Below are positions 3,764-54,778 of a DNA stretch of 64,000 nucleotides, piece by piece. The stretch spans positions 23,640 through 87,639 of the forward strand of contig CAUJHZ010000044.1 of NCBI GenBank assembly GCA_963205185.1, read 5' to 3'. Each line of letters begins with the position of its first letter. Position 1 is the stretch's first letter. Both the position numbers and the translations under genes were made by a program. Origin of the DNA: Planctomycetota bacterium. GTDB lineage: Bacteria > Planctomycetota > Phycisphaerae > Phycisphaerales > UBA5793. The notes beneath the pieces were generated by a model. The model ran no database searches and was not told the origin of the DNA. It worked only from the letters and a program-made list of their open reading frames with translations.

Positions 3764-4075
3764 GGGAGGGTCTTCGCCGACACACCGGCCCTTGCGCCGA
3801 CGGCTGCAAGACCCGCCCGCCCAAACCCCGTGCTCACGCCAATCCGAGCCCCGACCGTGAGGGAGGGTCTTCGCCGACACACCGGCAAAGGGCACCCGCC
3901 CAAACCCCGTGCTCACGCGAGGGGCTCGGTTTCAATCGTCACTCGCAAGTCGCGCCAGTCCGAGCCCCGACCGTGAGGGAGGGCCTTCGCCGACACACCG
4001 GCCCGTGCGCCGACGGCTGCAAGACCCGCCCGCGCAAACCCCGTGCTCACGCATGGGGCTCGGTTTCATTCCTCA
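3746..4075. repeat. Three tandem/nested palindromic (REP- or MITE-like) elements
   Basis: A 43-nt unit tccgagccccgaccgtgagggaggg(t/c)cttcgccgacacaccgg occurs at 3746, 3843 and 3959. Each is followed by cccgcc..caaaccccgtgctcacgc. In copies 2 and 3, ggggctcggtttca follows, which is the inverted complement of the 5' end. Confidence 0.8.
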
Positions 4076-4079
4076 TCGC

Positions 4080-5348: not shown

Positions 5349-5459
5349 GCGATTTCCTTGTTCGTGATCCTCAACGCGGCGCGGCGGCGCTTGAGCGTGT
5401 ATTGTTCCTTCAAGATCGACCGGGGGAAGCCGGGAACACCAGTATTGTTGACCGCCCAA

Positions 5460-15305: not shown

Positions 15306-15344
15306 CGGCTGCGGCTCCTCCAGTTCGCCCCCATCATAGCGGCA

Positions 15345-15553
15345 GCCGCGGCGAAGCGCCGAGAGAGGTGAGAGGAGACGGGAGAGCTGGAGAGCCGAAC
15401 TGGCTTGCTGCCTCGGCGCCTCGATGCCTTTCCCTAATGCCAAGTGCCTAATGCCTCGCCGCGATGCCTCGATGCCTCGATGCCTCGATGCCTTTCCCTA
15501 GTGCCTAGTGCCTAGCGCCTAATGCCTAATGCCAAGTGCCTAATGCCTCTCCA
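15345..15553 (-). repeat. 3' module of cassette locus 1: AGGCAY heptamer array plus a pyrimidine-rich tail
   Basis: Read on the gene strand there are about 20 tandem 7-nt units (taggcac/taggcat/gaggcat...), then ctctcacctctctcggcgcttcgccg. It is homologous to 25719..25853 and 40888..41129. Confidence 0.85.
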
Positions 15554-16933: not shown

Positions 16934-17004
16934 GATGGAACCTCCAATCGGACTTCGATGAAAGCGCCGGCGCATGCTCTAGCACTCGCCGGCGAGAACA
17001 AGAG

Positions 17005-19620: not shown

Positions 19621-19700
19621 CGACAAGACGGCGACTCCATCTATCGAAACACCGACTGAGATTGGCGGCCGTAGCCTCTGCAACGGACGGCCCCCCAGAC

Positions 19701-20015
19701 CAATGGACGACAGCACTTCGAGACGCTGCTCCAACCTACCAGCAGACGGCCGCATCGTCGAGAGCAAAGCGATAAAGCGACACTCGATCAGGGTGGATTT
19801 CTTGCGCCGAACACGCTGTGGTTGAGTGAAAATCTGCGCACCAGCGCGCATCTCCCGCACCTTCTCGCCTTGAAATCACCGCGCGGCGAGCCACAATCGA
19901 GGCGTCGGTGGCGGACATGACGAATTGCGAACCCCGGACGTGCCGGGTACAGGGCGCCGCGAGGCGCCGGGAGATTGATTGTGAAGGTGGTGGTGACGCG
20001 AACGCTGGCTGGTGG
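19701..20015 (-). repeat. 5' module of cassette locus 1 (conserved leader, promoter region and a 35-nt copy of the 5' end of the 2-hydroxyacid dehydrogenase gene)
   Basis: It is the reverse complement of 23628..23941 with only a handful of mismatches. Positions 19981..20015 (gtgaaggtggtggtgacgcgaacgctggctggtgg) are identical to the first 35 nt of CDS 22676..23662. Confidence 0.85.
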
Positions 20016-22675: not shown

Positions 22676-23662
22676 TCACCGACGCTCCACCCGGTTAATC
22701 GGATTCGGTGGGGTTTCACCCTTCAGCACGGCGATCACATTCCGCTGCGCCATCCGCGCCATCTCGGGCCGCGCGCTGCGCGAAGCGCTGCCCACGTGCG
22801 GCATCAGGCACGTATTGCCCAGCTCGCCAAGCCCCGGCGCCAGGCGCGGCTCATCCTCGTACACATCCAGCCCCGCACCCGCAATCTTCCCCGACGCCAG
22901 CGCCTCCACCAGGGCCCGCTCGTCTACTACAGCCCCTCGTGAGGTGTTGATCAGATACGCCGTCGGCTTCATCAGCCCCAGCTCGCGCCGCCCGATCAGA
23001 TGCCGCGTCTCGCGCGTCAGCGGCGTGTGCAGCGAGACGTAGTCCGCCTCGCGCAGCCCCGTCTCCAGCTCCACCCGCTGCGCGCCCAGCGGCGGCCGCT
23101 CAAACTCCTCGTGCGCCGACCTTGCCACATACAACACGCGCATGCCCCAGCCCAGCGAGCGCATCGCCGTGGCATAGCCGATGCGCCCCGCGCCGACGAT
23201 GAGCAGCGTGCGCCCCTCAAAGTCGCCGCCGATGAGGTGCCTCGGGTCGTAGCCGCGCCTCGTGCTGAACTCGCCGCTGCGCACTTCGCGCTCGCCCTCG
23301 TGCAGCCGCCGCGCCACGGCAAGCATGAGCGCCCAGGCCATGTCGGCGGTCGGGGCCGTCACGGCGTCGGGTGTGTTGGTGAGCCAGATGCCGCGCCGCG
23401 TCGCCTCGGGCACATCCATGTTGTCAAAGCCCACGGCGTAGTTCGCCACCACCTTCAGATTCGGCCCCGCCGCGTCAAACAGTTCCGCGTTCACCGCTTC
23501 GTTGAACTGGCACAGCAGTCCATCCGCGCCCGCGACGCGTTCCAGCAGCTCGCCGCGATCCGGCCCGATGCCCGGTGGCGCGACCCACAGGTCCGTGATG
23601 CCCGGCTCGCGCTCGAGCAACTCCACTCCACCAGCCAGCGTTCGCGTCACCACCACCTTCAC
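22676..23662 (-). CDS. Glyoxylate/hydroxypyruvate reductase-like D-2-hydroxyacid dehydrogenase
   Basis: ..[68 protein letters not shown] prefer the GTG 23662 start (VKVVVTRTLAGG), which is the typical N-terminus of this family. ATG 23725 is the alternative. Confidence 0.85.
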   Translation of the reverse strand: MKVVVTRTLAGGVELLEREPGITDLWVAPPGIGPDRGELLERVAGADGLLCQFNEAVNAELFDAAGPNLKVVANYAVGFDNMDVPEATRRGIWLTNTPDAVTAPTADMAWALMLAVARRLHEGEREVRSGEFSTRRGYDPRHLIGGDFEGRTLLIVGAGRIGYATAMRSLGWGMRVLYVARSAHEEFERPPLGAQRVELETGLREADYVSLHTPLTRETRHLIGRRELGLMKPTAYLINTSRGAVVDERALVEALASGKIAGAGLDVYEDEPRLAPGLGELGNTCLMPHVGSASRSARPEMARMAQRNVIAVLKGETPPNPINRVERR

Positions 23663-23985
23663 AATCCATCTCCCGGCGCCTCGCGGCGCCCTGTACCCGG
23701 CACGTCCGGGGTTCGATTTCATCATGTCCGCTACCGACGCCTCGATTGTGGCTCGCCGCCCGGTGATTTCAAGGCGAGAAGGTGCGGGAGATGCGCGCTG
23801 GTGCGCAGATTCTCACTCAACCACAGCGTGCTCGGCACGAGAAATCCACCCTGATCGAGTGTCGCTTTGGCGCTTTGTTCTCGACGATGCGGTCGTCTGC
23901 TGGTACGTTGGAGCAGCGTCTCGCAGTGCTGCCCTCCATTGCCGGCGCGGCCGCTGGTCGCAATCGTGCCGCAAGAAAGAAGGCC
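23628..23985 (+). repeat. 5' module of cassette locus 2 (promoter region plus conserved non-coding leader)
   Basis: 23628..23941 is an inverted copy of 19701..20015. 23792..23985 is a direct copy of 38955..39148, with about 10 differences by manual alignment. Confidence 0.85.
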
Positions 23986-24300
23986 ATGCCAGACAATCGT
24001 ACCGGTCCCGTTTTCCTGCCCAACGCGCTTGCCAGTGCTGGCTTCGCAACCGCTTGTCACAGCGCGCTCCAGTTCGACTCCGGAACGGTAGACGATCCTA
24101 GTCGACACCAGGTTGAGGGCTTGCGTGCAACGCAACTGCTTGATCCTGAGACCATGACGGAACGCGATTATCTGTTCACGCCGGTTTCCGACTGGTACCT
24201 CGACCAGTACGCCGCGCCGGCGCACAAGATCCCAAACTTCGTGGTGCATCCTAGCGCCTGTGATCCTGAGCACACGTGTCCGGAGTGTCCGCAGCAGTGA
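23986..24300 (+). CDS. Small Cys-rich protein (104 aa), cassette gene 1 (short form)
   Basis: The ATG is preceded by AGAAAGAAGG. Compared with the paralog 39149..39463, 11 codons differ only synonymously and 8 change the amino acid. It shares ALxSAGFxxAC..VSDxY..CPxCxQ with the C-terminus of the 871-aa protein 17005..19620. Confidence 0.6.
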   Translation: MPDNRTGPVFLPNALASAGFATACHSALQFDSGTVDDPSRHQVEGLRATQLLDPETMTERDYLFTPVSDWYLDQYAAPAHKIPNFVVHPSACDPEHTCPECPQQ

Positions 24301-24356
24301 TGTTGAGATCTCGGTGGGAGGGCCGCGCCCTCCCACCGTTCGACTGACGAGGTGAC

Positions 24357-25718
24357 ATGATGAACCCGACCCACCGAATCTTCGTTTTGGCAGTGGTCTT
24401 GTGTGGCGATTGTGCCTTCAGCGAGGACTTCAGTTATGCGGTCTTCAACCTACCGGGACTAAACCCAGATGAACTGCATGGCGCATCGTACGCGGTCAAC
24501 GAGAGAGGCTACGTTTGTGGTTCGAGTGTGTCTCTGATCGGCGCTGTTCATGGCGCGATTTGGGATCCCGCCGGTAACGTGGTTGATCTGGGTGCGATCG
24601 GAGGCAACAGCAGCGAGGCGCACGATCTAAATGACCTTGGCCAGGCAGTGGGCTGGACTGGGCGCGGCCCGGACGATGGCAGGGCGTTTCTGTGGCAAGA
24701 TGGGGAGATGGTTGACCTTGGAACACTTGGTGGCCAATTCAGCTCAGCCCGAGGAGTGAACAATTCTAAGCAGATTGTCGGGAAGTCGGGGACCAGCGGT
24801 GGATCAAGCAGTGCGTTCCTATGGGAGGATGGAGAGATGCGAGCTCTGCCAGGACTCGCTGAAGGACAGTCGACTCAGGCGTATGCCATCAATGATGCCA
24901 GCCGCGTCGTCGGGTACTCGTGGCCACCGCAATCCGGTCACATCGCCGTTTACTGGGAGAACGAACAAGTATTTGAATTGCCCCGATGGATTGGACCCAG
25001 CGATGCGTTCGCCGTAAATGATCTCGGCCATATCGTCGGACAAGCCGAATACTCGGCGTCCAAATATCACGCGGCCGCTTGGGTGGACGGTCAAATCCAC
25101 GACCTCCACCGCGCCAGCCTCGGGCGGGACAGTTCTGCCTGGGGTATCAACAATGTCGGCCAGGTCGTCGGGTGGCTCGGCGACGGCCGAACGCTGTTTG
25201 TCCGCCAGGCATTTCTATGGGAACAGCAGGGCGGCATGCGAACGCTCGACAGCATGGTGCCGCCTCGGTTGCGCAAGAACTGGTCTCTCACCGTGGCGCG
25301 CGACATCAACGAAGCGGGACAGATCGCCGCGTATGGCATTGAGGCCGGTCATCCCCTGATCCTCGTACCGTTCCTTGTGAGTCCGGTCCATCCGACGATG
25401 GAGATGGCGGCGCCTTCACCGGGTATCGCGGGTACGAACAATACCATCAGCATCACCGGCGCGACCCCCGGCGCGCGCGTCGTTTTTCTCTACTCCCGCC
25501 ACGGCGGCGGCACCCGCATCCCCGGCTGCGACCTCCAGCAGAACGCGCTGCAATTAGATCAGCCGACGGTGATCGGTACCGCCATCGCCGACTCCAACGG
25601 CGTTGCATCAATCACCCGCAACGTCCCGCTCATCGTCCGCGGCCAGACCATCCTCTTCCAAGCCCTCGACCAGAACGAGTGCGCGATCAGCCAGTTGGTG
25701 GTGCATGAGTTTGAGTGA
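24357..25718 (+). CDS. Secreted HAF-repeat protein with a type-A C-terminal domain (paralog 2)
   Basis: It has a signal peptide (MMNPTHRIFVLAVVLCGDCAFS) and repeats such as RAFLWQDGEMVDLGTLGG..GVNNSKQIVG. It ends ..TPGARVVFLYSRHGGGTRIPGCDLQQNALQLDQPTVIG..ECAISQLVVHEFE. Confidence 0.85.
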   Translation: MMNPTHRIFVLAVVLCGDCAFSEDFSYAVFNLPGLNPDELHGASYAVNERGYVCGSSVSLIGAVHGAIWDPAGNVVDLGAIGGNSSEAHDLNDLGQAVGWTGRGPDDGRAFLWQDGEMVDLGTLGGQFSSARGVNNSKQIVGKSGTSGGSSSAFLWEDGEMRALPGLAEGQSTQAYAINDASRVVGYSWPPQSGHIAVYWENEQVFELPRWIGPSDAFAVNDLGHIVGQAEYSASKYHAAAWVDGQIHDLHRASLGRDSSAWGINNVGQVVGWLGDGRTLFVRQAFLWEQQGGMRTLDSMVPPRLRKNWSLTVARDINEAGQIAAYGIEAGHPLILVPFLVSPVHPTMEMAAPSPGIAGTNNTISITGATPGARVVFLYSRHGGGTRIPGCDLQQNALQLDQPTVIGTAIADSNGVASITRNVPLIVRGQTILFQALDQNECAISQLVVHEFE

Positions 25719-25853
25719 AAGATGCAAGGGACCAGGCACTAGGCACTTGGCAATCGGGGAAGGCATCGAGGCAGCAAGGGCGAGCTCTCCTTTCTCCTTT
25801 CTCCTTTCTCTTCTCACTCTTCTCGGCGCTGCGCCGCCACCTCTCTCGGCGCT
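25719..25853 (+). repeat. 3' module of cassette locus 2: short AGGCAY heptamer array plus a pyrimidine-rich tail
   Basis: aagatgcaagggaccaggcactaggcacttggcaat..ggcatcgaggcagcaaggg.. then ctcctttctcctttctcctttctcttctcac and ctcggcgctgcgccgcc units. This copy has about 8 heptamers. Confidence 0.85.
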
Positions 25854-27283: not shown

Positions 27284-28891
27284 TCAATCGCGATCGCGGC
27301 ACTTCCATGCGATGGAGATGCCGGTCTCGGTGCGCTCGGGCGTGGGCTGGGAGACGCGCCAGCGGATCTCGGAGACGGCCGAAAGCAGTTCGCGCCAGCC
27401 GAAGAGTTCGGCCAAGAAGGCATGCTCGGCGCCGGCGCTGACGGCGGGCCACTGCGCGATGAGCGCGGCGACGCGGCCGCCGAAGATCACGCCGCGCGCC
27501 TGCGTCTGCGAAGCGGTGCGGCAAGGGGGATCGACGTCGCGCAGTTTGGAGGCGATGCGGCGCTGGCACTGTTCGTCGGTGGAAGCGACCCACCACGAGC
27601 GGTCTTTTCCATCTACGCTCGACCAGACGACGCGCTCGGGCCACGCGCCGCTGAGGCCGAGTGTGTTCATGGGCAGACCGGCGCCGCGCCACTCAGCGGT
27701 GCGCAGATCTTCGGGATCGGTGCCCGTGAACGAGACGGCGGGAGGCTGCTCGTCTTTGTCTTTTCCATCGCGACGGAACCTGGAGAGACGGGCCGTGGCG
27801 TGGCCCATGAACTCGTCGAGTTCGCCGACGGCCTGGGCGGGCTGGCGCATCTCGATGCCGACGGTCATGGCGGGTACGCCGGTGGCGCCGGCCGCGGTGG
27901 CGTCGGGTGAATCGATGACGGTGAACATGGTCGGGCCGAGGTGCTCGAGCATCTCGGGCTGGGCGAGCGCGATGGGCACGAGCGCGATCAGCGCCGGGCC
28001 GGCGCGGCGATCGCAAGGCGGATCGCCGGGCTCGGGTGTGCGCTCGATGCTGACGTAGAGCGCGTGTTCGGCGAGCGTGCCGAGCAGGCCGAGGTTGATG
28101 GCGTCGTCGGGCTGGCGGTCGATGTCGCGCGGCTCGTGGACGGAGGCGAAGTTGAGATACATGCGGTCGCGGCGCATCTTGGCGGCGCCCGCTTTCCACT
28201 GGCCTTCGCCTGAGCCGCGCACGAACATACCAAAGTCGCCCGGGCCGACGGCGCGGGCGTCGCGGAATTCATCGTCGTCGGCGAGCGACGGTCCGGCGGG
28301 CATGCCGAGCATGGCCTTGAGCAGGGCTTCGCCGTCGGAGGCGGTGAGGTAGAACCGGCCGTCGCTGTAGGCGAAGCGCAGGGCGCCGTTTTCCGCGGCG
28401 TAGAGCGGCGTGTCGTTGACGAATTCGCGCACGCGACCGCCGAGCATCTTGAGCAGATCGCGCGCGAAGGGTTCGTCGACGTGCGCCATCATGACCCATC
28501 GGCTGAAGTCGGGCCCTTTGCCGCGACCCGCGTGCGCCTCGGGCTGCTGATCGGTCACGAGCGTGACGCGCTTGCTGACGAGCATGTCGAAGAGTTGGTC
28601 GGGCTGCACGCCGGTGGCGGCGGCGAGGTCTTTCCACGACCTGCCGCTCTGGCCGCTTTCATAGAACGCCTTGAGGCCCGGTGCGAGCGAAGAGTTCATG
28701 AGTTCGGCGAGGCTCTCGCCGGCGTCGACAAAGCAGTAGTACTGGGTGATGGTGGCGGGCAGGTAGCGGGCGTCTTCAAAGGGGTCTGGGAATGCCTCGC
28801 CGCCGCGCACCGGAACGGGCAGCCACGCGGCGATCAATAGCACCGCCGCCAGAGCGAGCGCGCGAGACCGGATTGGGCGCACAGCGGGCAC
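27284..28891 (-). CDS. Secreted hypothetical protein (535 aa), third gene of the second ECF triad
   Basis: Signal peptide MPAVRPIRSRALALAAVLLIAAWLPVPVRG. The composition is protein-like and I recognise no motif. It starts 4 nt after the anti-sigma-like gene. Confidence 0.65.
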   Translation of the reverse strand: MPAVRPIRSRALALAAVLLIAAWLPVPVRGGEAFPDPFEDARYLPATITQYYCFVDAGESLAELMNSSLAPGLKAFYESGQSGRSWKDLAAATGVQPDQLFDMLVSKRVTLVTDQQPEAHAGRGKGPDFSRWVMMAHVDEPFARDLLKMLGGRVREFVNDTPLYAAENGALRFAYSDGRFYLTASDGEALLKAMLGMPAGPSLADDDEFRDARAVGPGDFGMFVRGSGEGQWKAGAAKMRRDRMYLNFASVHEPRDIDRQPDDAINLGLLGTLAEHALYVSIERTPEPGDPPCDRRAGPALIALVPIALAQPEMLEHLGPTMFTVIDSPDATAAGATGVPAMTVGIEMRQPAQAVGELDEFMGHATARLSRFRRDGKDKDEQPPAVSFTGTDPEDLRTAEWRGAGLPMNTLGLSGAWPERVVWSSVDGKDRSWWVASTDEQCQRRIASKLRDVDPPCRTASQTQARGVIFGGRVAALIAQWPAVSAGAEHAFLAELFGWRELLSAVSEIRWRVSQPTPERTETGISIAWKCRDRD

Positions 28892-28894
28892 GAC

Positions 28895-29593
28895 TCAGAC
28901 TATCCCCAGATCCTTGTAGATCGCCTTGAGGGTTTCGATGTCGATCTCTTCGTCGATCAGCCCGTCATCGGTGATGGCAGGCGAGGGCTCGATTCCGGCT
29001 CGCCTGACTGCGGGCCGGCGCGGCTGCGGCGGTTGGCGCAAGGGGGCATCCTGCCGAGCAGACTCGGGCTGGCTGACCTGCACCGGGGCCGGCTGGCTTT
29101 CGGCGAGCGTGGAGCCCACCTCGAGCATGACGCCGCGCACGCGATCGAATGGGTCGAGTTGAATCGGCAGCGATTCGATGACGCGCTCGAACTGGCGGGC
29201 GGTTTCGACGCGCTCGGCGGCGGCGGGGCGGAACCCGGTGGAGCGGGCCCACATGCCGATAACGAACGCAAACATCAGCACTGCCGCGCTGGCAAGCCGG
29301 CGGGTGAAGATGGTAAAGCGGTGGCGGCGGCGGTCGAAGTGGTTTGGATCGACACCGAGGCGGTCGAGGATGCGCATCGTCTGATCGGGCGCGGGCGCTG
29401 CGGCGCGGACCTCGTCGATCCACTCCCGGTCGCGCGCGAGATCGTCAAGCACCGAAGCATCGCGCAGGACTTCATCGAGCATGGAGCGTGCAGGCTTGCC
29501 CGAACCGCGCGCATCGAAGTAGGCGTCGATGCGCTGCGACTCTGTATCGCGTCGATCGGCATCGCGAGGATGGAGATGATCGTCAGCGCTCAT
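28895..29593 (-). CDS. Putative anti-sigma factor (single-pass membrane protein)
   Basis: There is a 4-nt overlap with the upstream ECF sigma gene. It has one TM helix (LASAAVLMFAFVIGMW). The call rests on position and architecture. Confidence 0.55.
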   Translation of the reverse strand: MSADDHLHPRDADRRDTESQRIDAYFDARGSGKPARSMLDEVLRDASVLDDLARDREWIDEVRAAAPAPDQTMRILDRLGVDPNHFDRRRHRFTIFTRRLASAAVLMFAFVIGMWARSTGFRPAAAERVETARQFERVIESLPIQLDPFDRVRGVMLEVGSTLAESQPAPVQVSQPESARQDAPLRQPPQPRRPAVRRAGIEPSPAITDDGLIDEEIDIETLKAIYKDLGIV

Positions 29594-30213
29594 GTCGCAT
29601 CCGCCGTTTCAAATGATGCAGTCTCGGGCGTCGGCGTCTCGGGCAGCGCCTGGGGCTCGTAGAGTTCGGCCTGCTCGATGGCTTCGCGCATCTTTCTGCG
29701 AGCGCGATGGAGATGGCTCTTGATCGTTCCCTCGGGCATGCTCAGGTAGAGCGAGATGTCGGCAATCGACCACTCCTGCTGGTGGAAGAGCAGCACGATC
29801 TCGCGCTGCGCATCGCCGAGGCTGGCCAGGCCGTGCGCCACGGCGCGGCGGGCGGTGGTGCGCGTCTCGACGCCGACGGCGTCGGCCACCGGCGAATCAT
29901 CATCGCTGCGCCATCCGTTCACAATCTCTGATTCGGCAATCGGGTGAAACTTCTGAACCCAGTTCACGTACAGCCGCTTGGCGATCGTGAACAACCAGGT
30001 CGAGAAGCGATACTTTGGGTCGAAGCGGTCGAGGTTCTTGAGCACGCGCACGAACGCTTCCTGCACGACGTCTTCGGCGACTTCGGGCCGGCCCGACATG
30101 CGCAGCATGAACGCGTAGAGCGACTCCTGGTGCGCGCGAATGAGCGAGCTGATGGCTTCGGCGTCACCGGTCTTGGCCCGTTTGATGAGTTGCTGCTCTT
30201 GAGCGCGTAGCAT
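29590..30213 (-). CDS. ECF-type RNA polymerase sigma-70 factor
   Basis: ..ESLYAFMLRMSGRPEVAEDVVQEAFVRVLKNLDRFDPKYRFSTWLFTIAKRLYVNW.. and ..LGDAQREIVLLFHQQEWSIADISLYLSMPEGTIKSHLHRARRKM. Confidence 0.88.
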   Translation of the reverse strand: MLRAQEQQLIKRAKTGDAEAISSLIRAHQESLYAFMLRMSGRPEVAEDVVQEAFVRVLKNLDRFDPKYRFSTWLFTIAKRLYVNWVQKFHPIAESEIVNGWRSDDDSPVADAVGVETRTTARRAVAHGLASLGDAQREIVLLFHQQEWSIADISLYLSMPEGTIKSHLHRARRKMREAIEQAELYEPQALPETPTPETASFETADAT

Positions 30214-32547: not shown

Positions 32548-33237
32548 GTGACCACGCGCCGCCGCACCCGCATCGTCAGATCATGTGCTGTCGTACTGTG
32601 CATCGCCCTTTCATCGCTGAGCGCTCACGCTCAGATTTCCGGGAGCGCGCATGACTTCTCCGGCAAGGGCTGGGCCGATGCGCAGATCTGCAAGCCCTGT
32701 CATACTCCGCACAACGCCTTGCGGGTCGAAGTGAACGGCTACTTGGCCGGTCGCCTCTGGAACCATTCTCTTTCCGCCTCGAGCCAGGTTTATTCAACTC
32801 TGGCCGGAGACCTGACGCGGGATGATGCGCTAGACGTATACAGTCTGCTGTGCATGGGCTGCCACGACGGCACGGTGGCGCTGGATTCCTATGGCGGGCG
32901 TGCGGGCTCCATGTTTGTTGGAATTAACAACGTCGCGGCGCCGGACCCCATTGGCGGACTTATCGGCATCGACTTGACGGATGACCATCCCGTCGGCGCC
33001 GGAGGCGTCTGGCCCGATCCTGAAGTCACCTATCTCCGACCCCGCAGCACCTGGGAGAATCAGACTTTCGGGGGCTCGCGCATGGGTGGGCTTCGACCGA
33101 TGTCGATAAATGGCGAGGAACGGCTGGTCGTGAGTTGCGCCACCTGCCATGAGCCGCACGGCCGCGGAAACTACCAGGGCATGCTTCGAATCGACAATGC
33201 AGGCAGCCAGATGTGCCTCGTATGTCACGTGAAATAG
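32548..33237 (+). CDS. Secreted tetraheme c-type cytochrome
   Basis: A signal peptide (..VVLCIALSSLSAHAQ) and four CxxCH motifs: CKPCH, CMGCH, CATCH and CLVCH. Confidence 0.85.
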   Translation: MTTRRRTRIVRSCAVVLCIALSSLSAHAQISGSAHDFSGKGWADAQICKPCHTPHNALRVEVNGYLAGRLWNHSLSASSQVYSTLAGDLTRDDALDVYSLLCMGCHDGTVALDSYGGRAGSMFVGINNVAAPDPIGGLIGIDLTDDHPVGAGGVWPDPEVTYLRPRSTWENQTFGGSRMGGLRPMSINGEERLVVSCATCHEPHGRGNYQGMLRIDNAGSQMCLVCHVK

Positions 33238-33486: not shown

Positions 33487-33687
33487 ATGACGCGAACCTG
33501 TTCACCGATCTGCGCGGCGACATTGAGGAGGACCCGCGCCGGCACCGCCACCGCCAATGCAAACGGCATCGCCACGCTCACGCGCTTGATCCCCGGCAAC
33601 GCCTCCAACCTCGGCGAGGTGCTCATCCAAGCCGTCGATGCCGACAACTGCCAGATCAGCCAACTTGTCGTGCATCAGTTCGAATGA
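33487..33687 (+). pseudogene. Orphan fragment of the type-A C-terminal domain
   Basis: The translation ends ..ANANGIATLTRLIPGNASNLGEVLIQAVDADNCQISQLVVHQFE. This parallels ..ADANGVASITRPVPLVARGQTILFQAVVQNECAISQLVVWEFE in the HAF proteins. There is an in-frame stop 24 nt upstream and no signal peptide or N-terminal domain. Confidence 0.45.
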
Positions 33688-35224: not shown

Positions 35225-35257
35225 AAAAAAAGACCTCACCTCCGCGGGGAGGTGAGG
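35225..35257 (-). terminator. Rho-independent terminator of 35302..36282
   Basis: On the minus strand: cctcacctcc-ccgc-ggaggtgagg (10-bp stem) followed by tcttttttt. Confidence 0.75.
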
Positions 35258-35301
35258 CCCTTGATCTCAGGAGATCAGATGATCACTAGCAGTTGGACTG
35301 C

Positions 35302-36282
35302 TTACGGAATCTGTCCGACGGTGCTGGCCTCGCAGGGGCTGGCGATGGTGACCAGCTGGAGGTAGCCGCCGCACGCGGCGTTGTTGGCATTGCCATTCAC
35401 GCTGCCCGTGCCGCTGCCGGTGGGAACCGTATTGACCAGGCGGATGTTCTGGGTGCCCAGGCCGAGTTGCGTGCCCTGGCAGGGACCGCTGGGAACGACG
35501 AACGAACCGGTGTTGCCGGCAAAGACGATGCCCTGCTGCTTGTTGGGCTGGGCGCCATCCCAGGCGACGTTGACGGTGCCGGGGCAGGTGCCGGTGACGG
35601 TGCAGGTGTATCCGCCGCCGCCCTGGCCGAGGCCGGTGAGCGACATGTCGTCGTAGTAGGTGGAGGTGCCGAGGGTGTAGAGATCGACGTTGGCGATCTC
35701 AATGGCGCCGCCGCGAATGAAGAGCTGACCCGTTGACACTTCGACGTTGTTGTAGTACGTCGTGATGGTGTCGTTGTCGACGTCGAGTTCGCAGCGGATT
35801 TCCGCCCACTGATCAAACGCGATGGACGGGAAGTTGGTCTCGGTGCGGAAGTCGTCGGCCACAGTGCCGGGGCCGCCGCCTGCGTCGCCTTCGAAGTCAA
35901 ACTGCAGTTCGATGCACCACTGGTAGGGGCCGCCGTGGGCATATTCGTTCTGCACGATGAAGTAGGTGTCAGAGACGAACTGGGAGACGGGGATGTAGAC
36001 CCACGCCGTGAAGGTGCCGGCGCCGGAGGTCAGGCCCGTGAAGGGATGGACGGCGTCGTCGGCGCCTTCGCTCAGGATCGATTTGGTGCCGCCGTGCGCA
36101 TGCGCAGTGCTGCACGAGCCGCAGACAGACTGAGTGTCATCCCAGCCGGTCCAGCCGCCCACGTTGTACAGCACCTGTCCGTCGGTGTAGGACTCGAAGT
36201 CATCGCTCCAGTCCTGCGCGAAGGCAGCGCTGCCCAGGGACATCGCCGCGGCGAGCCCGAATCCGGTGAGTTTGCTCTTCAT
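35302..36282 (-). CDS. Secreted protein: LamG/jelly-roll-like N-terminal domain plus a type-B conserved C-terminal domain
   Basis: Signal MKSKLTGFGLAAAMSLGSAAFAQ, then DWSDDFESYTDGQ.. The C-terminus is ..CPGTVNVAWDGAQPNKQQGIVFAGNTGS..PCQGTQLGLGTQ..ACGGYLQLVTIASPCEASTVGQIP. AAAGGAG precedes the ATG. Confidence 0.8.
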   Translation of the reverse strand: MKSKLTGFGLAAAMSLGSAAFAQDWSDDFESYTDGQVLYNVGGWTGWDDTQSVCGSCSTAHAHGGTKSILSEGADDAVHPFTGLTSGAGTFTAWVYIPVSQFVSDTYFIVQNEYAHGGPYQWCIELQFDFEGDAGGGPGTVADDFRTETNFPSIAFDQWAEIRCELDVDNDTITTYYNNVEVSTGQLFIRGGAIEIANVDLYTLGTSTYYDDMSLTGLGQGGGGYTCTVTGTCPGTVNVAWDGAQPNKQQGIVFAGNTGSFVVPSGPCQGTQLGLGTQNIRLVNTVPTGSGTGSVNGNANNAACGGYLQLVTIASPCEASTVGQIP

Positions 36283-36695
36283 AAAATCCGCTCCTTTTCA
36301 AATGGGACAGAACACTTTGAGGCGTCCAGCCAACTCCGGCTGGAATCGCCCCGCGATTGATGCCGCCCGCCGAACTGACGAGCAAAAAGCACCGCCGCCA
36401 TCCCGAACTCCCGCAGGATGGTGGATTTCACTTCTCGAAACGGAACTTTGCTCCGACCCCCGTGCGGAACCCCTCTCCGTCCTGCAATCAAGATACCCGA
36501 TTCCCACCGGAAAGCGAAGCGCAATTCCTGAAAACACAAGAAGATCAGGGCAGAATTCCGGTTTTCCGGCTTCAGCGGGCCCGACGGGCGGGGCGGACAA
36601 GGCCATTGACCGCCCACTTCGGAGTAGGTTCGCAATCTGTATGGTGTGAAGATAGCAAGGTTAAGCCTTTTTCATTGGAAAAAAAACATTCTGCC

Positions 36696-36711
36696 TGGCT
36701 AACGCGTTGCA
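36696..36711 (+). promoter_or_regulatory. Sigma-54-like -24/-12 element (speculative)
   Basis: TGGCTAACGCGTTGCA has the GG and GC dinucleotides at the canonical spacing of TGGCAC-N5-TTGCA. It lies about 420 nt upstream of the 37132 start, which is an unusually long leader. Confidence 0.2.
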
Positions 36712-37131
36712 TCTGGCGCTTTTCCCTGTACACTGTAACGGAGAATGATCGGTATCCTGCGGGTGCCGGTCTGATGCCGCCGTACGCGGCGGACTCAACT
36801 GCGAACGGGCAGTTTGACGGGCTGGTGAGTGGACGATTCGAAACAGGGTCGTCAGCGAATCTCCGGCTCCGCTGAGTGGGATGAGAGTGGTGATTGAGGA
36901 TTGAGAGAGAAAAGGAGAGGGGGAGCAGAGGAGCAATCGCGTCGCTTCTGACGCGGCACCGACTCTGGCGCTGAGCCGCGGGCTTGCGCGGAGTTCGCAG
37001 ACGGTTGCTTCTTCCGGCGTGCCCGGCCCCCACGCTTCGACTGATGTAGTACACCGCACGGTTTCAAACTCGGGACGGCGCGTTGCCGTCTGTGAGTCGT
37101 TTGTGTTCTTTCCTAACGGAGAAAAGAAGAA

Positions 37132-38130
37132 ATGGCAAAGTCAACGAAGTTCTTCCTTGGTGCAGCAGCGATGGCCCTCTCGGCTTCCGCTGCGGCAAAC
37201 GCTCAGATCGCTTCGGTCGCCCCGTCGACCAGCGGTCAGAACAGCATCATCGCTCAGGATGAGTACATGTGGGACGACGGCAGCACCGAGAACCTTCTCG
37301 GCTGGACGGCCGGCGGCACCATGGCCTGGATTCAGTGGTTCGACGCCGCCGGCGGCAGCGACACCATCAGCGAAATCCGCATCATCAACGGCTCGGCGCT
37401 GTATCCGGGTTACGGCAACGGCAACGGTTCGCCCGTTTCCGTCGGCATCTGGAGCGATCCCAACGGCGACGGCGAGCCCAGTGACTCCGTCCTGCTCACC
37501 AGCGTAAACACCACCGTCCAGAACATCGACACGGACACCTACCAGACCGTCGCCATCCCCGGCGGCCAGGCGGTGAATGGTCGGTTCTTCATCGGTGCCT
37601 GGATTGCCCACAACGCCGGTCAGTTCGTCGCTCCGATGGACCAGAACTCGGGCAACATCATCGCCGGTCGCGCCTACGTGTTCGGCAACTACAACGGCTA
37701 CGGCGGTTCGTTCAATCCCAACATGCCCGGCGACACGCTCAACAACATCCTCTATGAGATGACGAGCATCGGCTTCCCGACCAACTTCTGCGTCCGCGCT
37801 TCCAGCGGCGGCGGCGGCGGCTACAGCCTCACCGTCAGCGGCAACTGCCCCGGCACCGTCAACGTCGCCTGGGCCGGCGCTCAGCCCAACAAGCAGCAGG
37901 GCATCGTCTTCGCCGCCAACACCGGCAGCTACACGATCCCCGGCGGCCCCTGCGCCGGCACGCAGCTCGGTCTGGGCACCCAGCAGCTCCGCCTCGTCAA
38001 CACGGTTCCCACCGGCAACGGTTCGGGCAACGTGAACGGCAACGCGAGCAGCGGCGCTTGCGGTGGCTACCTCCAGCTGGTCACCATTTCGAGCCCCTGC
38101 GAAACCAGCAACGTGGATCAGATCCCGTAA
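37132..38130 (+). CDS. Secreted protein: beta-sandwich N-terminal domain plus a type-B conserved C-terminal domain
   Basis: Signal MAKSTKFFLGAAAMALSASAAANAQ. The N-terminal domain has ..DEYMWDDGSTENLLGW..GIWSDPNGDGEPSD.. The C-terminus is ..CPGTVNVAWAGAQPNKQQGIVFAANTGS..PCAGTQLGLGTQ..ACGGYLQLVTISSPCETSNVDQIP. GGAG precedes the ATG. Confidence 0.8.
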   Translation: MAKSTKFFLGAAAMALSASAAANAQIASVAPSTSGQNSIIAQDEYMWDDGSTENLLGWTAGGTMAWIQWFDAAGGSDTISEIRIINGSALYPGYGNGNGSPVSVGIWSDPNGDGEPSDSVLLTSVNTTVQNIDTDTYQTVAIPGGQAVNGRFFIGAWIAHNAGQFVAPMDQNSGNIIAGRAYVFGNYNGYGGSFNPNMPGDTLNNILYEMTSIGFPTNFCVRASSGGGGGYSLTVSGNCPGTVNVAWAGAQPNKQQGIVFAANTGSYTIPGGPCAGTQLGLGTQQLRLVNTVPTGNGSGNVNGNASSGACGGYLQLVTISSPCETSNVDQIP

Positions 38131-38177
38131 TCCGGTTTCCCGGATCGCTTGAAATCGATCTCTCCTGAGATCACCCG

Positions 38178-38209
38178 CCTCACCCCCGCAAGGGGGTGAG
38201 GTTCTTTTT
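38178..38209 (+). terminator. Rho-independent terminator of 37132..38130
   Basis: cctcaccccc-gcaa-gggggtgagg (10-bp stem) followed by ttcttttt. It closely resembles the terminator at 35225..35257. Confidence 0.8.
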
Positions 38210-38411
38210 CTGGCCGCTGAGTTGAAAAAACGCTCTGCGCCTTGGCATTTGATTGCCCGGGCGGGCGTTCTTCTGCGAGTGCAATGGTGCAGCCGGATGT
38301 TCTCGCCCGTCGCAGCGCTCTTCACCATGCCGCTTCCTGCGTTGTGCAGGATCGCAGCCCAGTTCCATCCCCCGGCGCAACAGCACCTCGGAATCGAGGA
38401 AGGAGTTGAAC

Positions 38412-38798
38412 ATGAAGTACTCTTGGATCATTGCCGCAGCACTGCTTCTCGTCGGCCGCTCGGCGCTCGCCCAGTGCAACGATTACCAGCTGTCGATCAC
38501 CGGCACCTGCCCCGGCACGGTGACCGTGTTCTGGGGCGGCGCGCCGCCGGCCAGCACCCAGGCGCTGATCATCGGCAACACGCTCGGCTCGTTCACCATT
38601 CCGCCTGGGGCGTGCTTCGGCACCGTCATCTGCATCCAGGGCTCGGTCGGCATGGTGGGCACGCCCTTCTCGACCGGCACGGCGGGCGTGGGATCGATCA
38701 GCGGCACCGCCTCGGCCGGCGCGTGCGGCCGCTACCTCATCGCCGTCACCAACTTCGGCTCGCCGTGCCAGGTGAGCAATCCCGTACAGATTCCATAG
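38412..38798 (+). CDS. Stand-alone type-B C-terminal-domain protein (signal peptide plus domain only, 128 aa)
   Basis: ATG 38412 is preceded by GAAGGAG. MKYSWIIAAALLLVGRSALAQ is followed by ..CPGTVTVFWGGAPP..GSFTIPPGACFGT..ACGRYLIAVTNFGSPCQVSNPVQIP. Confidence 0.7.
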   Translation: MKYSWIIAAALLLVGRSALAQCNDYQLSITGTCPGTVTVFWGGAPPASTQALIIGNTLGSFTIPPGACFGTVICIQGSVGMVGTPFSTGTAGVGSISGTASAGACGRYLIAVTNFGSPCQVSNPVQIP

Positions 38799-38954: not shown

Positions 38955-39148
38955 TGCGCGCTGGTGCGCAGATTCTCACTCAACCACAGCGTGTTCGGCA
39001 CGAGAAATCCACCCTGATCGAGTGTCGCTTTATCGCTTTGTTCTCGACGATGCGGTCGTCTGCTGGTAGGTTGGAGCAGCGTCTCGCAGTGCTGTCGTCC
39101 ATTGCCGGCGCGACTGGTGGTCGCAATCGTGCCGCAAGAGAGAAGGCC
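38955..39148 (+). repeat. 5' module of cassette locus 3 (conserved non-coding leader)
   Basis: It is a direct copy of 23792..23985. It shares tgcgcgctggtgcgcagattctcactcaaccacagcgtg..ccattg with all three loci. Confidence 0.85.
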
Positions 39149-39463
39149 ATGCCAAACAATCGTACCAGTCCCGTTTTCCTGCCCAACGCGCTTGCCAGTG
39201 CTGGCTTCGCAACCGCTTGTCACAGCGCGCTCCAGTTCGACTCCGGAACGGTGGACGATCCTAGTCGACACCAGGTTGAGGGCTTGCGTGCGACGCAACT
39301 GATCGATCCTGAGAACATGACGGGGCGCCAGTATCTGTTCACTCCAGTCTCCGACTGGTACCTCGACCAGTACGCCGCGCCGGCGCACAAGATCGCTAAC
39401 TTCGTCGTGCATCCGAACGCGTGCGATCCCGAGCACACCTGTCCGGAGTGTCCGCAGCAGTGA
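39149..39463 (+). CDS. Small Cys-rich protein (104 aa), cassette gene 1 (short form), paralog of 23986..24300
   Basis: The ATG is preceded by AGAGAGAAGG. It ends ..NFVVHPNACDPEHTCPECPQQ. It is the only credible part of the 413-aa ORF 38222..39463. Confidence 0.6.
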   Translation: MPNNRTSPVFLPNALASAGFATACHSALQFDSGTVDDPSRHQVEGLRATQLIDPENMTGRQYLFTPVSDWYLDQYAAPAHKIANFVVHPNACDPEHTCPECPQQ

Positions 39464-39522
39464 TTTGGCCGCAGGTGGGCGGAGCGCCTCTCCGCCCACC
39501 ACTTCATTTGGAGATGCCATAC

Positions 39523-40887
39523 ATGCCACGCATCGCTACATTGCCTTTGTGCTTGACCGGCGTAATGACCATCTTCGGACCCGCCGGTGCCGGCGCCCAG
39601 CAGTACCCATATGCGGTTTTCGATCTGCAGGTCCTCAACCCGGAGGCCCCGCACTCGGCCACTCGGGCAATTGCTCAAAACGGGTGCGTCGTTGGCGGCT
39701 CCGACACCGGCCCCGAGTTGCACGCAGTCTTGTGGCCGGCGTTCGGCGGTGCGGTAGATCTCGGCACGCTTTCCGGCGATGACTCCGAGGCGCGAGGCGT
39801 GAACGGCGCTGTGGATATCGTTGGGTCGAGTGGAGACACATTCGGGCCACGTCGCGCATTCCTCTATCGCGACGGTCACATGATCGACCTCGGCACTCTT
39901 GGAGGCGTCGTCAGCGTCGCGAATGACATCAACGAATCCAGTCAGATCGTCGGGTACTCAACGACCGAGGTCACAACTTTGGCCTTCGTCTGGGAAGGTG
40001 GGGCCATGCGGGCCCTCCGTGGACTCGACGAGAGTCAGTCAACGCAGGCGTTTGCCATCAATAATGCCGGCCGTGTTGTCGGGTACTCGTGGCCACCGCA
40101 ATCCGGTCACATCGCCGTTTACTGGGAGAACGAACAGATTGTTGAATTGCCGCGATGGATCGGTCCCAGTGACGCGTTCGCCGTGAATGACCTTGGCCAC
40201 ATCGTTGGGCAAGCCGAATACTCGGCGTCCAAGTATCACGCGGCCGCGTGGGTGGACGGCCAGATCTACGACCTCCACCGCGCCAGCCTCGGGCGCGACA
40301 GTTCCGCCTGGGGCATCAATAATGTCGGCCAGGTCGTCGGGTGGCTCGGTGACGGTCGCACGTTGTTCGTTCGCCAGGCATTTCTCTGGGAACAGCAAGG
40401 CGGCATGCGAACGCTCGACAGCTTGGCGCCACCTCGCTTGCGGAAGAACTGGTCGATCACCATGGCGCACGACATCAACGATGCGGGACAGATCGCCGCG
40501 TATGGCGTCGAGGCTGGTCATCCCCTGATCCTCGTGCCGTTCCTTGTGAGTCCAGTCAATCCGACGATGGAGATGGCGGCGCCATCACCGGGTGTCGCGG
40601 GCACGAGCAACACCATCAGTATCACCGGCGCGACCCCCGGCGCGCGCGTCGTTTTTCTCTACTCCCGCCGCGGCGGTGGCACGCGCATCCCCGGTTGCGA
40701 CTTGCAGCAGAACGCGCTGCAACTCGATCAGCCGACGGTGATTGGCAGCGCCATCGCCGACGCCAACGGCGTGGCCACCATCACCCGCAACGTCCCCCTC
40801 ATCGCCCGCGGCCAGACCATCCTCTTCCAGGCCGTGGTGCAGAACGAGTGCGCCATCAGTCAGTTGGTGGTGCATGAGTTTGAGTGA
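39523..40887 (+). CDS. Secreted HAF-repeat protein with a type-A C-terminal domain (paralog 3)
   Basis: ATG 39523 lies 9-10 nt after GGAG, and ATG 39514 is the alternative. Signal MPRIATLPLCLTGVMTIFGPAGAGAQQ. It has HAF repeats and ends ..ECAISQLVVHEFE. Confidence 0.85.
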   Translation: MPRIATLPLCLTGVMTIFGPAGAGAQQYPYAVFDLQVLNPEAPHSATRAIAQNGCVVGGSDTGPELHAVLWPAFGGAVDLGTLSGDDSEARGVNGAVDIVGSSGDTFGPRRAFLYRDGHMIDLGTLGGVVSVANDINESSQIVGYSTTEVTTLAFVWEGGAMRALRGLDESQSTQAFAINNAGRVVGYSWPPQSGHIAVYWENEQIVELPRWIGPSDAFAVNDLGHIVGQAEYSASKYHAAAWVDGQIYDLHRASLGRDSSAWGINNVGQVVGWLGDGRTLFVRQAFLWEQQGGMRTLDSLAPPRLRKNWSITMAHDINDAGQIAAYGVEAGHPLILVPFLVSPVNPTMEMAAPSPGVAGTSNTISITGATPGARVVFLYSRRGGGTRIPGCDLQQNALQLDQPTVIGSAIADANGVATITRNVPLIARGQTILFQAVVQNECAISQLVVHEFE

Positions 40888-41129
40888 AAGATGCAAGGGA
40901 CCAGGCACTTGGCTCGAGGCACTAGGCACTAGGCATTAGGCATTAGGGAAAGGCATCGAGGCATCAAGGCATCGCGGAGAAGCATCAGGCACTTGGCACT
41001 TGGCAATGGGGAGGGCAGCGAGGCAGCAAGGGCGAGGTCTCCGTTCTCCTTTCTCTTCTCACCTCTCTCGGCGCTGCGCCGCCGCCAATCTCGGCGCTGC
41101 GCCGCCGCCAATCTCGGCGCTTCGCCGTG
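40888..41129 (+). repeat. 3' module of cassette locus 3: long AGGCAY heptamer array, a pyrimidine-rich tail and a duplicated 23-nt unit
   Basis: About 18 units (caggcac ttggctc gaggcac taggcac taggcat taggcat ...), then ctccgttctcctttctcttctcac, then ctcggcgctgcgccgccgccaat repeated about 2.5 times. Confidence 0.85.
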
Positions 41130-53136: not shown

Positions 53137-53326
53137 GTCGCGACCAGCATGGTAGTCTGGAGTATTTTGGCTCACCAGCCGGAGATCGGAATGATTCGCG
53201 CTGTTTCCCGGTTTACCCGTTGACAACAGTGGCCCTTAGAGGTTACGCTGTGCGCGGTGCGGCGCGTCAGGTTCGCCACGCGGGCGGATCGTCTGCCGCA
53301 TCGTCTTTCCTGGAGGATTGTGCGTG

Positions 53327-54778
53327 ATGAACTGCATGAACGTTGTGGCGCGCCGGCGGCTCGCCGGATTTGCCTGCCTGGCGGTGGTGGGTGCTTCGAC
53401 CGCCACATTTGCCCAGTATAACGCCCACAAGGTGCGCCTGATGAGCCAACTCACGCCACAGCAGATGGGCGGCTCGGGCGGCAACGACTGCTGGGGCTAC
53501 ACGAGCCCGTCGGGACGCGAGTACGGCATCATCGGCAACTACACCAGCACGGCCTTCGTCGAGGTTACCGACCCCGTCAATCCCGTCATCGTGCACATCG
53601 AGCCGCACAGCCAGAGCACGACCGAGGACATGAAGGTCTACGGCCACTACGCCTACTGCATCGGCGACTACTTCAACCTCCAGGTGTTCGATCTGAGCCA
53701 GATCGACAGCGGCGTGGTCACCAAGGTCAACGAGCGGCCCTACCGGAGCCACAATTTCGCGCTCAACGAAGAGAGCGGCTTTGCGTACATGACGGCGTCG
53801 AGCCAGGGCAGCGGCATCGTGGCGCTCGACTTGAGCGACCCGACGACGCCGACCGTTGCGGGCTCGACGAACCCCACCGGCGGGCACGTGCACGACGCGC
53901 AGGTCGTCACCTACCACGATGGCCCCTATGCGGGTAAGGAGATCGCCTTCTGCCCGAGCGGGTACTGGCGCTTTGACATCATCGACGTAACGGACAAGTC
54001 GAACATGGTGCTGCTCGGCTCGGATGTGTATCCCGGCTTGAACTACTGCCACCAGGGATGGCTCAGCGCCGACCGCCGGTACTTCTATCTCAACGATGAA
54101 CTCGATGAACTCAACGGCTACACGCCCACGACGCGCACGCTGGTCTACGACGTGTCGGATCTGAGCAACCCGACGCTCGTTTCGGAGTTCACCTCCGGCA
54201 TGACGGCGACGGATCACAACCTGTTCGTCAAGGACGGGTTCATCTACGAAGCAAACTACTCCAGCGGCTTCCAACTCTTCGACGCCCGCAATGATCCGGA
54301 GAATCCGGTGCGCGTCGGCTGGTTCGACACCTATCCCGAGAATGATGCGCCCGGCTACGCCCACGGCGCGTGGACGGCGTGGCCGTTCTTCGAATCGGGC
54401 ACGGTGATCGTCAACGACCGCGATCGCGGACTGTTCGTCGTCGATGTTTCCGAGGCGATCGGCGCGAGAATGGACCTGGCGAGCACGACGCTCACTGCCG
54501 GTCAGAGCGCGACGCTCTCGGTCCAGCGGGCCACCCCGGGCCAGCGCGTGCATTTCATCTACAGCCTGGTGGGCGGCGATGCGTGGACGCGCGTCAACGC
54601 GCTGAACGTGTATCTCAACCTGGCCAGTCCCGTGCTCATCGGCAGCGCCACGGCCGATGGCAACGGCGAGGCATCGCTCATGCGCAACGTCCCGCAGGGG
54701 ACGTCGGGGCTCACGCTGTGGCTCCAGGCGGCCGAGAATGGAAACACTTCCAATGTGCTGGAGGAGACGATTCAGTAA
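53327..54778 (+). CDS. Secreted LVIVD-repeat / choice-of-anchor-B-like beta-propeller protein with a Cys-free variant of the conserved C-terminal domain
   Basis: A signal peptide (..LAGFACLAVVGASTATFAQ), then ..GGNDCWGYTSPSGREYGIIG..AFVEVTDPVNP.. The C-terminus is ..ATPGQRVHFIYSLVGG..LNLASPVLIGSATADGNGEASLMRNVP..LWLQAAENGNTSNVLEETIQ. The start may be ATG 53327, GTG 53324 or TTG 53318. Confidence 0.78.
   Translation: MNCMNVVARRRLAGFACLAVVGASTATFAQYNAHKVRLMSQLTPQQMGGSGGNDCWGYTSPSGREYGIIGNYTSTAFVEVTDPVNPVIVHIEPHSQSTTEDMKVYGHYAYCIGDYFNLQVFDLSQIDSGVVTKVNERPYRSHNFALNEESGFAYMTASSQGSGIVALDLSDPTTPTVAGSTNPTGGHVHDAQVVTYHDGPYAGKEIAFCPSGYWRFDIIDVTDKSNMVLLGSDVYPGLNYCHQGWLSADRRYFYLNDELDELNGYTPTTRTLVYDVSDLSNPTLVSEFTSGMTATDHNLFVKDGFIYEANYSSGFQLFDARNDPENPVRVGWFDTYPENDAPGYAHGAWTAWPFFESGTVIVNDRDRGLFVVDVSEAIGARMDLASTTLTAGQSATLSVQRATPGQRVHFIYSLVGGDAWTRVNALNVYLNLASPVLIGSATADGNGEASLMRNVPQGTSGLTLWLQAAENGNTSNVLEETIQ

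Follow-up and report, generated by a model that had tools for sequence, protein, structure and literature searches.

Why should secreted proteins that are otherwise unrelated end in the same folded domain, and even at the same residue? This question is raised by a 64,000-nucleotide stretch of DNA from a member of the Phycisphaerales, Planctomycetota (contig CAUJHZ010000044.1, positions 23,640 to 87,639; G+C ~65%), referred to here as the window, in which three adjacent genes encode proteins that close with a ~100-residue domain and stop exactly at the tripeptide QIP. We use the shorthand CT domain for this C-terminal beta-sandwich domain, which occurs in three types, A, B and C; the three adjacent genes carry type B. 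A preliminary description, made from the letters of the window, had counted eight copies with invariant termini and had proposed that they represent a novel sorting or anchoring domain. We found that the CT domain is a large, lineage-expanded family that is absent from the standard catalogues, is nearly always C-terminal, and is expanded in Phycisphaerales.

The three type-B genes are real open reading frames (ORFs) with the strong third-position G+C bias of coding sequence, and translation confirmed that each of them stops directly after QIP. B1 (326 aa; 35302-36282, minus strand) consists of a signal peptide, a ~200-residue lectin-like or CBM-like beta-sandwich, a GGGG linker and the type-B domain (codons 35305-35610), which the type-B hidden Markov model (HMM) B150 matched with 130 bits at offset 0 from the stop. 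The N-terminal part had been described as LamG-like, a label that came down to one weak match, to CBM_4_9 (E 0.016), and that we do not retain. B2 (332 aa; 37132-38130, plus strand) has a signal peptide, an N-terminal domain with no Pfam or NCBIfam match, a GGGGG linker and a type-B domain (37822-38127; 140.5 bits with B150, offset 0 from the stop), and is similar to B1 by BLASTP (E 3e-66). Both genes have a strong intrinsic terminator just past the stop, that of B1 (35229-35262, minus strand; 15-bp stem and T-run) lying in a 3' cassette common with B2 and that of B2 (38177-38202, plus strand; 11-bp stem and T-run) being conserved with the B1 flank. The third gene, B3, is listed as an ORF at 38253-38798 (plus strand), and its true start is at 38412 (MKYSW), because the protein is identical to P0167 of an NCBI Phycisphaerales metagenome-assembled genome (MAG) and its orthologues P0169, P0046 and P0175 also begin with MKYSW. 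With this start, B3 (128 aa; 38412-38798) is just what the preliminary description had said of one of these genes, a signal peptide and a type-B domain (38484-38795; six cysteines, 105 bits) with nothing between them; a stand-alone gene of this kind is kept in synteny in two related genomes (L004 and L024).

Six-frame HMM scans of the whole window returned exactly eight CT domain copies and no others, in the places where they had been described: three of type B, three of type A plus one type-A fragment, and one of type C. Copies in the window reach 130-170 bits in profile matches, well outside the range of chance. The assignments of the copies other than type B were likewise borne out by translation and HMM. 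The three complete type-A domains close HAF-repeat proteins that all end in EFE: A1 (39421-40887, plus strand, probable start 39514; domain 40600-40884), A2 (24357-25718, plus strand; domain 25431-25715) and A3 (15554-16975, minus strand; domain 15557-15838). All three pass the cut-off of the HAF-repeat model TIGR02913 with six repeats each (132.9-160.9 bits, E 1e-39 to 1e-48); A1 gave E 2.6e-42 with this model, 174 bits with the AC HMM and 24.6 bits, in register, with the B150 HMM. The Cys-free type-C domain (54500-54775) ends a protein of the choice-of-anchor B family (53318-54778, plus strand, probable start 53327), which matched TIGR04312 over residues 32-375 with 295.8 bits against a cut-off of 100 (E 5.1e-88); the domain itself gave 109.5 bits with the AC HMM. 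The eighth copy is an orphan 3' fragment, found by six-frame translation, that corresponds to the last ~50 residues of a type-A-like domain (33535-33684, plus strand; AC HMM 47.9 bits, model positions 47-95) and that has no intact gene upstream.

The preliminary description had also aligned the three types on a common skeleton, and this alignment became significant with a large type-B profile. By BLASTP, types A and C are linked (E 1e-17), while type B showed no significant similarity to A or C, and when small profiles of the types were set against each other the outcome was borderline (hhalign P 0.0026, probability 11%). The exhaustive search described below supplied 158 type-B domains, and a profile of these matched the type-A domains of the window in register (22-27 bits, P ~1e-9 per sequence, model positions 15-101) and type C, also in register, with 13 bits. 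Moreover, metagenomic intermediates match both profiles (one of them gives 68 bits with the B profile and 38 with the A profile), and some of them join the four type-B cysteines with the type-A motif TDGDG...TRNV. Because of these profile matches and intermediates, we conclude on sequence grounds that types A, B and C are one superfamily.

The family extends far beyond the window. When 1.84 billion cluster representatives (clusters at 50% identity) were searched exhaustively with HMMER, the yield was 1,326 proteins at E <= 1e-3 and 428 at E <= 1e-10; searches by k-mers with single domains returned merely 2 and 7 relatives, thus understating the family. No Pfam-A (2025) or NCBIfam (release 20) model covers the CT domain, either in the window proteins (E <= 1) or in 137 family members (E <= 1e-3), and eight isolated domains had no significant match even at E <= 10, with one weak hint of Big_3_5 for type C (E 0.33). 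The family profile found nothing among all PDB chain sequences except a single chance match (E 0.32), no description of the domain was found in literature searches, and every source name retrieved for its relatives is "hypothetical protein." Thus, the claim of a novel modular domain held. Close relatives come from Phycisphaerales and Phycisphaerae MAGs, one MAG labeled Planctomycetaceae and one 5-kb contig labeled Vicinamibacteraceae, and a distant member comes from a Myxococcota MAG. Genome loci were sampled as 12-20 kb pieces, with a narrow search pattern that biases them toward close type-B relatives; the sampled parts of a single MAG held ~27 copies, and at many loci CT-domain genes stand in tandem arrays of three or four.

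The position of the domain is nearly fixed. Counted in DNA, whether genomic or metagenomic, 128 of 130 copies close within 0-2 residues of the stop codon; counted in proteins, the distance to the C-terminus is 0-4 residues for 150 of 152 (the top matches of the exhaustive search together with the three type-B proteins of the window); protein P0129 has a 13-residue tail beyond the domain, and no protein has more than two copies. The domain had been thought strictly C-terminal, which is true of ~98% of copies, but internal copies are present in 7 of 149 representatives. Five metagenomic proteins with internal copies (P0099, P0107, P0108, P0133 and P0145) share one layout, in which a choice-of-anchor Q/beta-helix region is followed by the internal copy, InlB-type B-repeats, FG-GAP repeats and the terminal copy, and in this subfamily a DSC(N/Q/H)PL motif is conserved just after the internal copy. 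The passengers are diverse and of kinds that are typical among surface proteins, comprising FG-GAP repeats, InlB B-repeats, SBBP, Kelch and PQQ-like propellers, beta-helices, S8 subtilases, a C-type lectin, DUF4394 and DUF4082; beyond the window, we also found choice-of-anchor Q (five proteins), choice-of-anchor J (one) and HAF (one) passengers. Choice-of-anchor families are defined by NCBI by their interchangeable C-terminal anchors. A crude test detected a signal-peptide-like N-terminus in 127 of the 149 representatives, and 19% of the 15 residues that precede the CT domain are glycine, consistent with a linker.

An AlphaFold2 model of the type-B domain of B2, made from a 51-sequence alignment, is a nine-strand beta-sandwich (predicted local distance difference test [pLDDT] score 95.9, predicted template-modeling [pTM] score 0.86). 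Foldseek against the PDB returned FN3 domains, monobodies and BhCBM56 as weak matches (E 6e-3 to 4e-2, template-modeling [TM] score 0.40-0.57; probability 0.96-1.00 for many of the FN3 domains), a likeness of this predicted model that points to the FN3/Ig-like fold class only and not to membership in a family. Type-B domains have four invariant cysteines, a CPG motif and the invariant glycines G48 and G69. Type A retains two cysteines, equivalent to C46 and C95, and type C has none. Because there are four invariant cysteines and type A keeps the second pair only, type B probably forms the disulfides C11-C82 and C46-C95. The final strand of type B is among its most conserved parts, reading C-x-T-S(91%)-N(90%)-V(88%)-x-Q(58%)-[ILV](95%)-P(72%), and Gln87, in the strand before it, is 97% conserved.

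The invariant termini of the preliminary description did not survive comparison across the family: the terminus is conserved but not invariant, and QIP itself ends 40 of 149 representatives. The identity seen in the window results partly from recent duplication of a 3' cassette, because the DNA similarity continues past the stop codon. The paralogues B1 and B2 are 82% identical at the DNA level in the CT domain versus 56% in the passenger, and their similarity extends ~80 nt beyond the stop, terminator included; among the type-A genes it extends ~200 nt beyond the stop. The A1 and A2 loci form a ~2-kb segmental duplication (blastn 88-93% identity over ~1.5 kb). The duplicated blocks of these two loci are 38955-39464 with 23792-24301 (93.5%) and 39982-40921 with 24813-25752 (88.5%); further upstream duplications pair 23628-23941 with 20015-19701 (94%) and 38955-39104 with 19850-19701 (96%). 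A 150-315-bp upstream segment is thereby common to A1, A2 and the 5' end of a 951-aa gene at 17005-19860, and may act as a promoter or leader that they share. Immediately after each type-A gene (15433-15548, 25734-25752 and 40903-41005), we observed tandem 7-nt (AGGCACT/AGGCATT) and 8-nt (AGGCATCG) repeats in differing copy numbers, followed by a CT-rich tract and a 23-nt repeat of 2.7 copies (41066-41127).

The module is also a substrate for recombination, as judged from the orphan fragment at 33535-33684 and from a chimeric protein, P0009, in which the signal peptide and start of a HAF protein are joined directly to the last 45 residues of a CT domain. Directly upstream of the orphan fragment lies a 229-aa secreted ORF (32548-33237, plus strand) with four CxxCH haem-binding motifs (CKPCH, CMGCH, CATCH and CLVCH), and L004 and L024, which are syntenic here, instead have an entire CT-domain gene at the position of this ORF and fragment. 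At another locus (L001 5087-6258, the same as L025 9087-10258), the loss of 1 nt from a C-run has broken a HAF/type-A gene in two, and gene calling lists its CT domain by itself as an 85-aa protein, P0004; the gene is either a pseudogene or wrongly assembled. A trypsin-PDZ (HtrA-like) gene comes after it.

What might such a domain do? We tentatively favor the explanation, held with a little less than even confidence, that the CT domain is a module by which Sec-exported proteins of Phycisphaerales and some other bacteria are in common targeted to the surface or retained there, and that it is recognized as a folded unit. This reading draws on the near-exclusive terminal position, the dozens of paralogues, the signal peptides, the Gly-rich linkers, the passengers from anchor families and the conserved final strand. 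The signal peptides seen in the sequences would bring each protein to the periplasm, where the CT domain would fold, held in type B by the two putative disulfides. A common partner could then bind the folded domain through the conserved face of the last two strands (putatively ACGGYLQ... and C-x-T-S-N-V-x-Q-I-P-COOH); this partner might be a translocon or shuttle of the outer membrane, or else a receptor or glycan on the cell surface. The passenger, whether lectin-like, propeller, HAF or protease, would end up displayed on the cell surface. [quoted passage not shown]

Thus, the sorting or anchoring proposal kept its support from position, paralogues and unrelated secreted passengers, but other observations weigh against it, and many of these speak for an ordinary FN3/Ig-like domain that serves in binding, spacing or oligomerization, has its own ligand and no role in secretion, and came to be terminal through recombination of 3' cassettes onto new 5' parts. 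We regard this second explanation as a serious possibility, although a doubtful one. The preliminary description had named a generic fold that also occurs internally as a finding that would argue against sorting, and both parts of it were found, an FN3/Ig-like sandwich and the internal copies in 7 of 149 representatives. The structure prediction that it had recommended is confident in itself, but its structural neighbors are generic FN3/Ig-like domains and CBM56, all of them weak (E >= 6e-3, TM score 0.40-0.57). Six of the representatives with internal copies are large beta-helix/FG-GAP proteins with an extra internal copy beside the terminal one, and the seventh, P0100, has an internal copy only; folding thus does not depend on a free C-terminus. 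The terminal tripeptide varies (QLP in 16, RIE in 9, QVP in 6 and IPQ in 6 of the 149, beside QIP), and 1-4 extra residues are tolerated after the domain. Proteins without cargo are common: 26 of 149 representatives are of <=160 aa and consist of a signal peptide and CT domain, as do most of the k-mer matches, and the conservation of such stand-alone forms among orthologues implies a function that belongs to the domain itself. The similarity of paralogous DNA past the stop, terminator included, together with the recombination at the module seen in the orphan fragment and P0009, suggests that the 3' position could come in part from shuffling of a cassette of domain plus terminator. When the neighbors that lack a CT domain were clustered over 24 genome loci and 42 metagenome loci, they gave only synteny groups and no recurrent partner, and neither a processing enzyme nor a translocon emerged from these neighborhoods. 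We considered stronger selection on the CT domain than on its passengers and ruled it out by comparing orthologues, in which identity is 67-85% over the domain and 75-89% over the passenger, with no better conservation of the former. Against a binding, spacer or oligomerization module, however, generic repeat and adhesion domains normally occur at varied positions and in tandem, whereas ~98% of CT domain copies come last in the protein, closing at the stop codon; a spacer would not usually have polar residues conserved in its final strand or a conserved terminus; and the CT domain replaces recognized anchors on choice-of-anchor and HAF passengers.

Two further explanations start from the terminal position and give it other meanings. 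The domain could be a C-terminal pro-domain (an intramolecular chaperone, an aid to secretion or a cause of latency) that is cut away once the protein has been exported, as happens with the bacterial pre-peptidase C-terminal (PPC) domains of secreted proteases. The Gly-rich linker offers a possible cleavage region, the fold is a beta-sandwich and some passengers are S8 subtilases, but propellers or lectin-like domains without enzymatic activity make up most of the passengers, the stand-alone copies would have nothing to chaperone, and no match to PPC or to any other Pfam family was found even at E <= 10; we consider this explanation improbable. More improbable still, in our judgment, is that the CT domain is a divergent but genuine T9SS C-terminal domain, handled by a PorU-like C25 sortase and a Sov/PorV-type translocon. 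Position, size, beta-sandwich fold and cargo are similar, the cargo including choice-of-anchor J, which is known on T9SS cargo (PMC11969387), and one MAG has a suggestive gene pair: in L025 (Phycisphaerales MAG.101, JAPKGW010000004.1), a stand-alone CT-domain gene (15214-15612, minus strand) is divergent from a gene for a secreted, gingipain/PorU-like C25 peptidase (15771-17435, plus strand), for which the highest-ranking NCBIfam model is that of the PorU sortase protease domain (E 4.7e-22). That match, however, reached 77 bits against a 420-bit cut-off, and the peptidase was seen in this one MAG and in none of the other loci examined; we treat it as a lead only. In addition, no T9SS C-terminal-domain model in Pfam or NCBIfam was matched at E <= 1-10, the predicted structure has nine strands and four cysteines in place of the seven strands of T9SS domains, and the top 50 Foldseek matches included no T9SS C-terminal domain structure.

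The neighbors of the CT-domain genes in the window are housekeeping genes, encoding an amidohydrolase, a GT9 heptosyltransferase, a HAD hydrolase, a 2-hydroxyacid dehydrogenase, UbiD and a nucleotidyltransferase. Beside A3 lies the 951-aa ORF already mentioned (17005-19860, minus strand), in which HAF-like repeat motifs occupy the first half and the C-terminus is rich in cysteine (...TACPQCQ); neither a Pfam or NCBIfam match nor a CT domain copy was found in it. An apparent operon at 27284-30213 (minus strand) comprises a gene for a sigma factor of the extracytoplasmic function (ECF) type (29590-30213) and genes for two proteins of 232 and 535 aa without family matches. Sigma genes like this one also lie near CT domains in L019, L020 and L052, perhaps through synteny or through general ECF similarity. 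Finally, a 102-bp direct repeat with 95% identity (3738-3839 and 3951-4052) lies around the junction of the ORFs 2825-3763 and 3909-6791.

The family matters in part because the routes by which planctomycetal proteins cross or reach the outer membrane are poorly understood. Phycisphaerales are abundant marine polysaccharide degraders, and the CT domain provides a sequence handle on their surface proteome; it sits in the slot that PEP-CTERM, LPXTG or T9SS signals occupy in other phyla. It can be used as a query for phylogenetic profiling toward partner machinery, and engineering may gain a display tag from it. Should it prove to be only a binding module, a family model would still be warranted and would bring consistent annotation to hundreds of "hypothetical proteins."

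How, then, does the CT domain compare with known C-terminal systems? The T9SS C-terminal domains of Bacteroidota are seven-strand beta-sandwiches of ~80-100 residues with key motifs in the last two strands (PMC11969387). Among the systems compared they are the closest likeness to the CT domain, which resembles both of their types (type A, TIGR04183/Por_Secre_tail; type B, TIGR04131) in being a beta-sandwich at the extreme C-terminus of Sec-exported proteins, with tens of cargo proteins per genome and unrelated passengers that include choice-of-anchor J proteins and FN3 adhesins. It differs from them in its nine predicted strands, its two putative disulfides and its internal and stand-alone copies, and in its occurrence in Planctomycetota (Phycisphaerales), where no T9SS was identified within the 12-20 kb genome pieces. 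Assignment to the T9SS domains by sequence models was rejected, as TIGR04183/PF18962 and TIGR04131/PF13585 were unmatched by the window proteins, the 137 family members and the eight isolated domains. A precedent within the PVC superphylum is the surface-bound sulfatase Amuc0953 of Akkermansia muciniphila, which has a final domain that its authors suggested to mark a T9SS-like route (PMC13524802). This small Ig-like domain is, like the CT domain, a terminal module of a PVC bacterium, although the T9SS-like route is a proposal there and no sequence relationship was detected when the family profile was compared with PDB chain sequences.

The short sorting signals offer a different parallel. PEP-CTERM/exosortase, LPXTG, GlyGly-CTERM and MYXO-CTERM signals are likewise C-terminal, have many paralogues and choice-of-anchor passengers, and commonly occur as small signal-only proteins; HAF repeats elsewhere often carry PEP-CTERM. 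Signals of the PEP-CTERM type are, however, ~25-35 residues long and are built as a motif followed by a transmembrane helix and then a basic tail, whereas the CT domain is soluble and folded and has 100 residues. Neither the window proteins nor the 137 family members matched any sorting-signal model of NCBIfam, and we rejected membership in the PEP-CTERM/exosortase system, as the CT domain ends in a polar beta-strand (...C-x-TSNV-x-QIP or ...ISQLVVHEFE) without a hydrophobic helix. Dockerins, whose partner is cohesin, and SLH anchors come close in logic, being terminal modules common to many unrelated secreted proteins of a genome that bind a common partner; their folds and sequences are unrelated to those of the CT domain, and we saw no scaffold protein bearing a partner or repeat in many copies. 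With FN3 and bacterial Ig-like domains, finally, the CT domain shares the overall topology of the beta-sandwich, but it stands apart from them in its weak structural matches, its distinct pattern of cysteines and glycines, and its near-exclusive position at the end of the protein.

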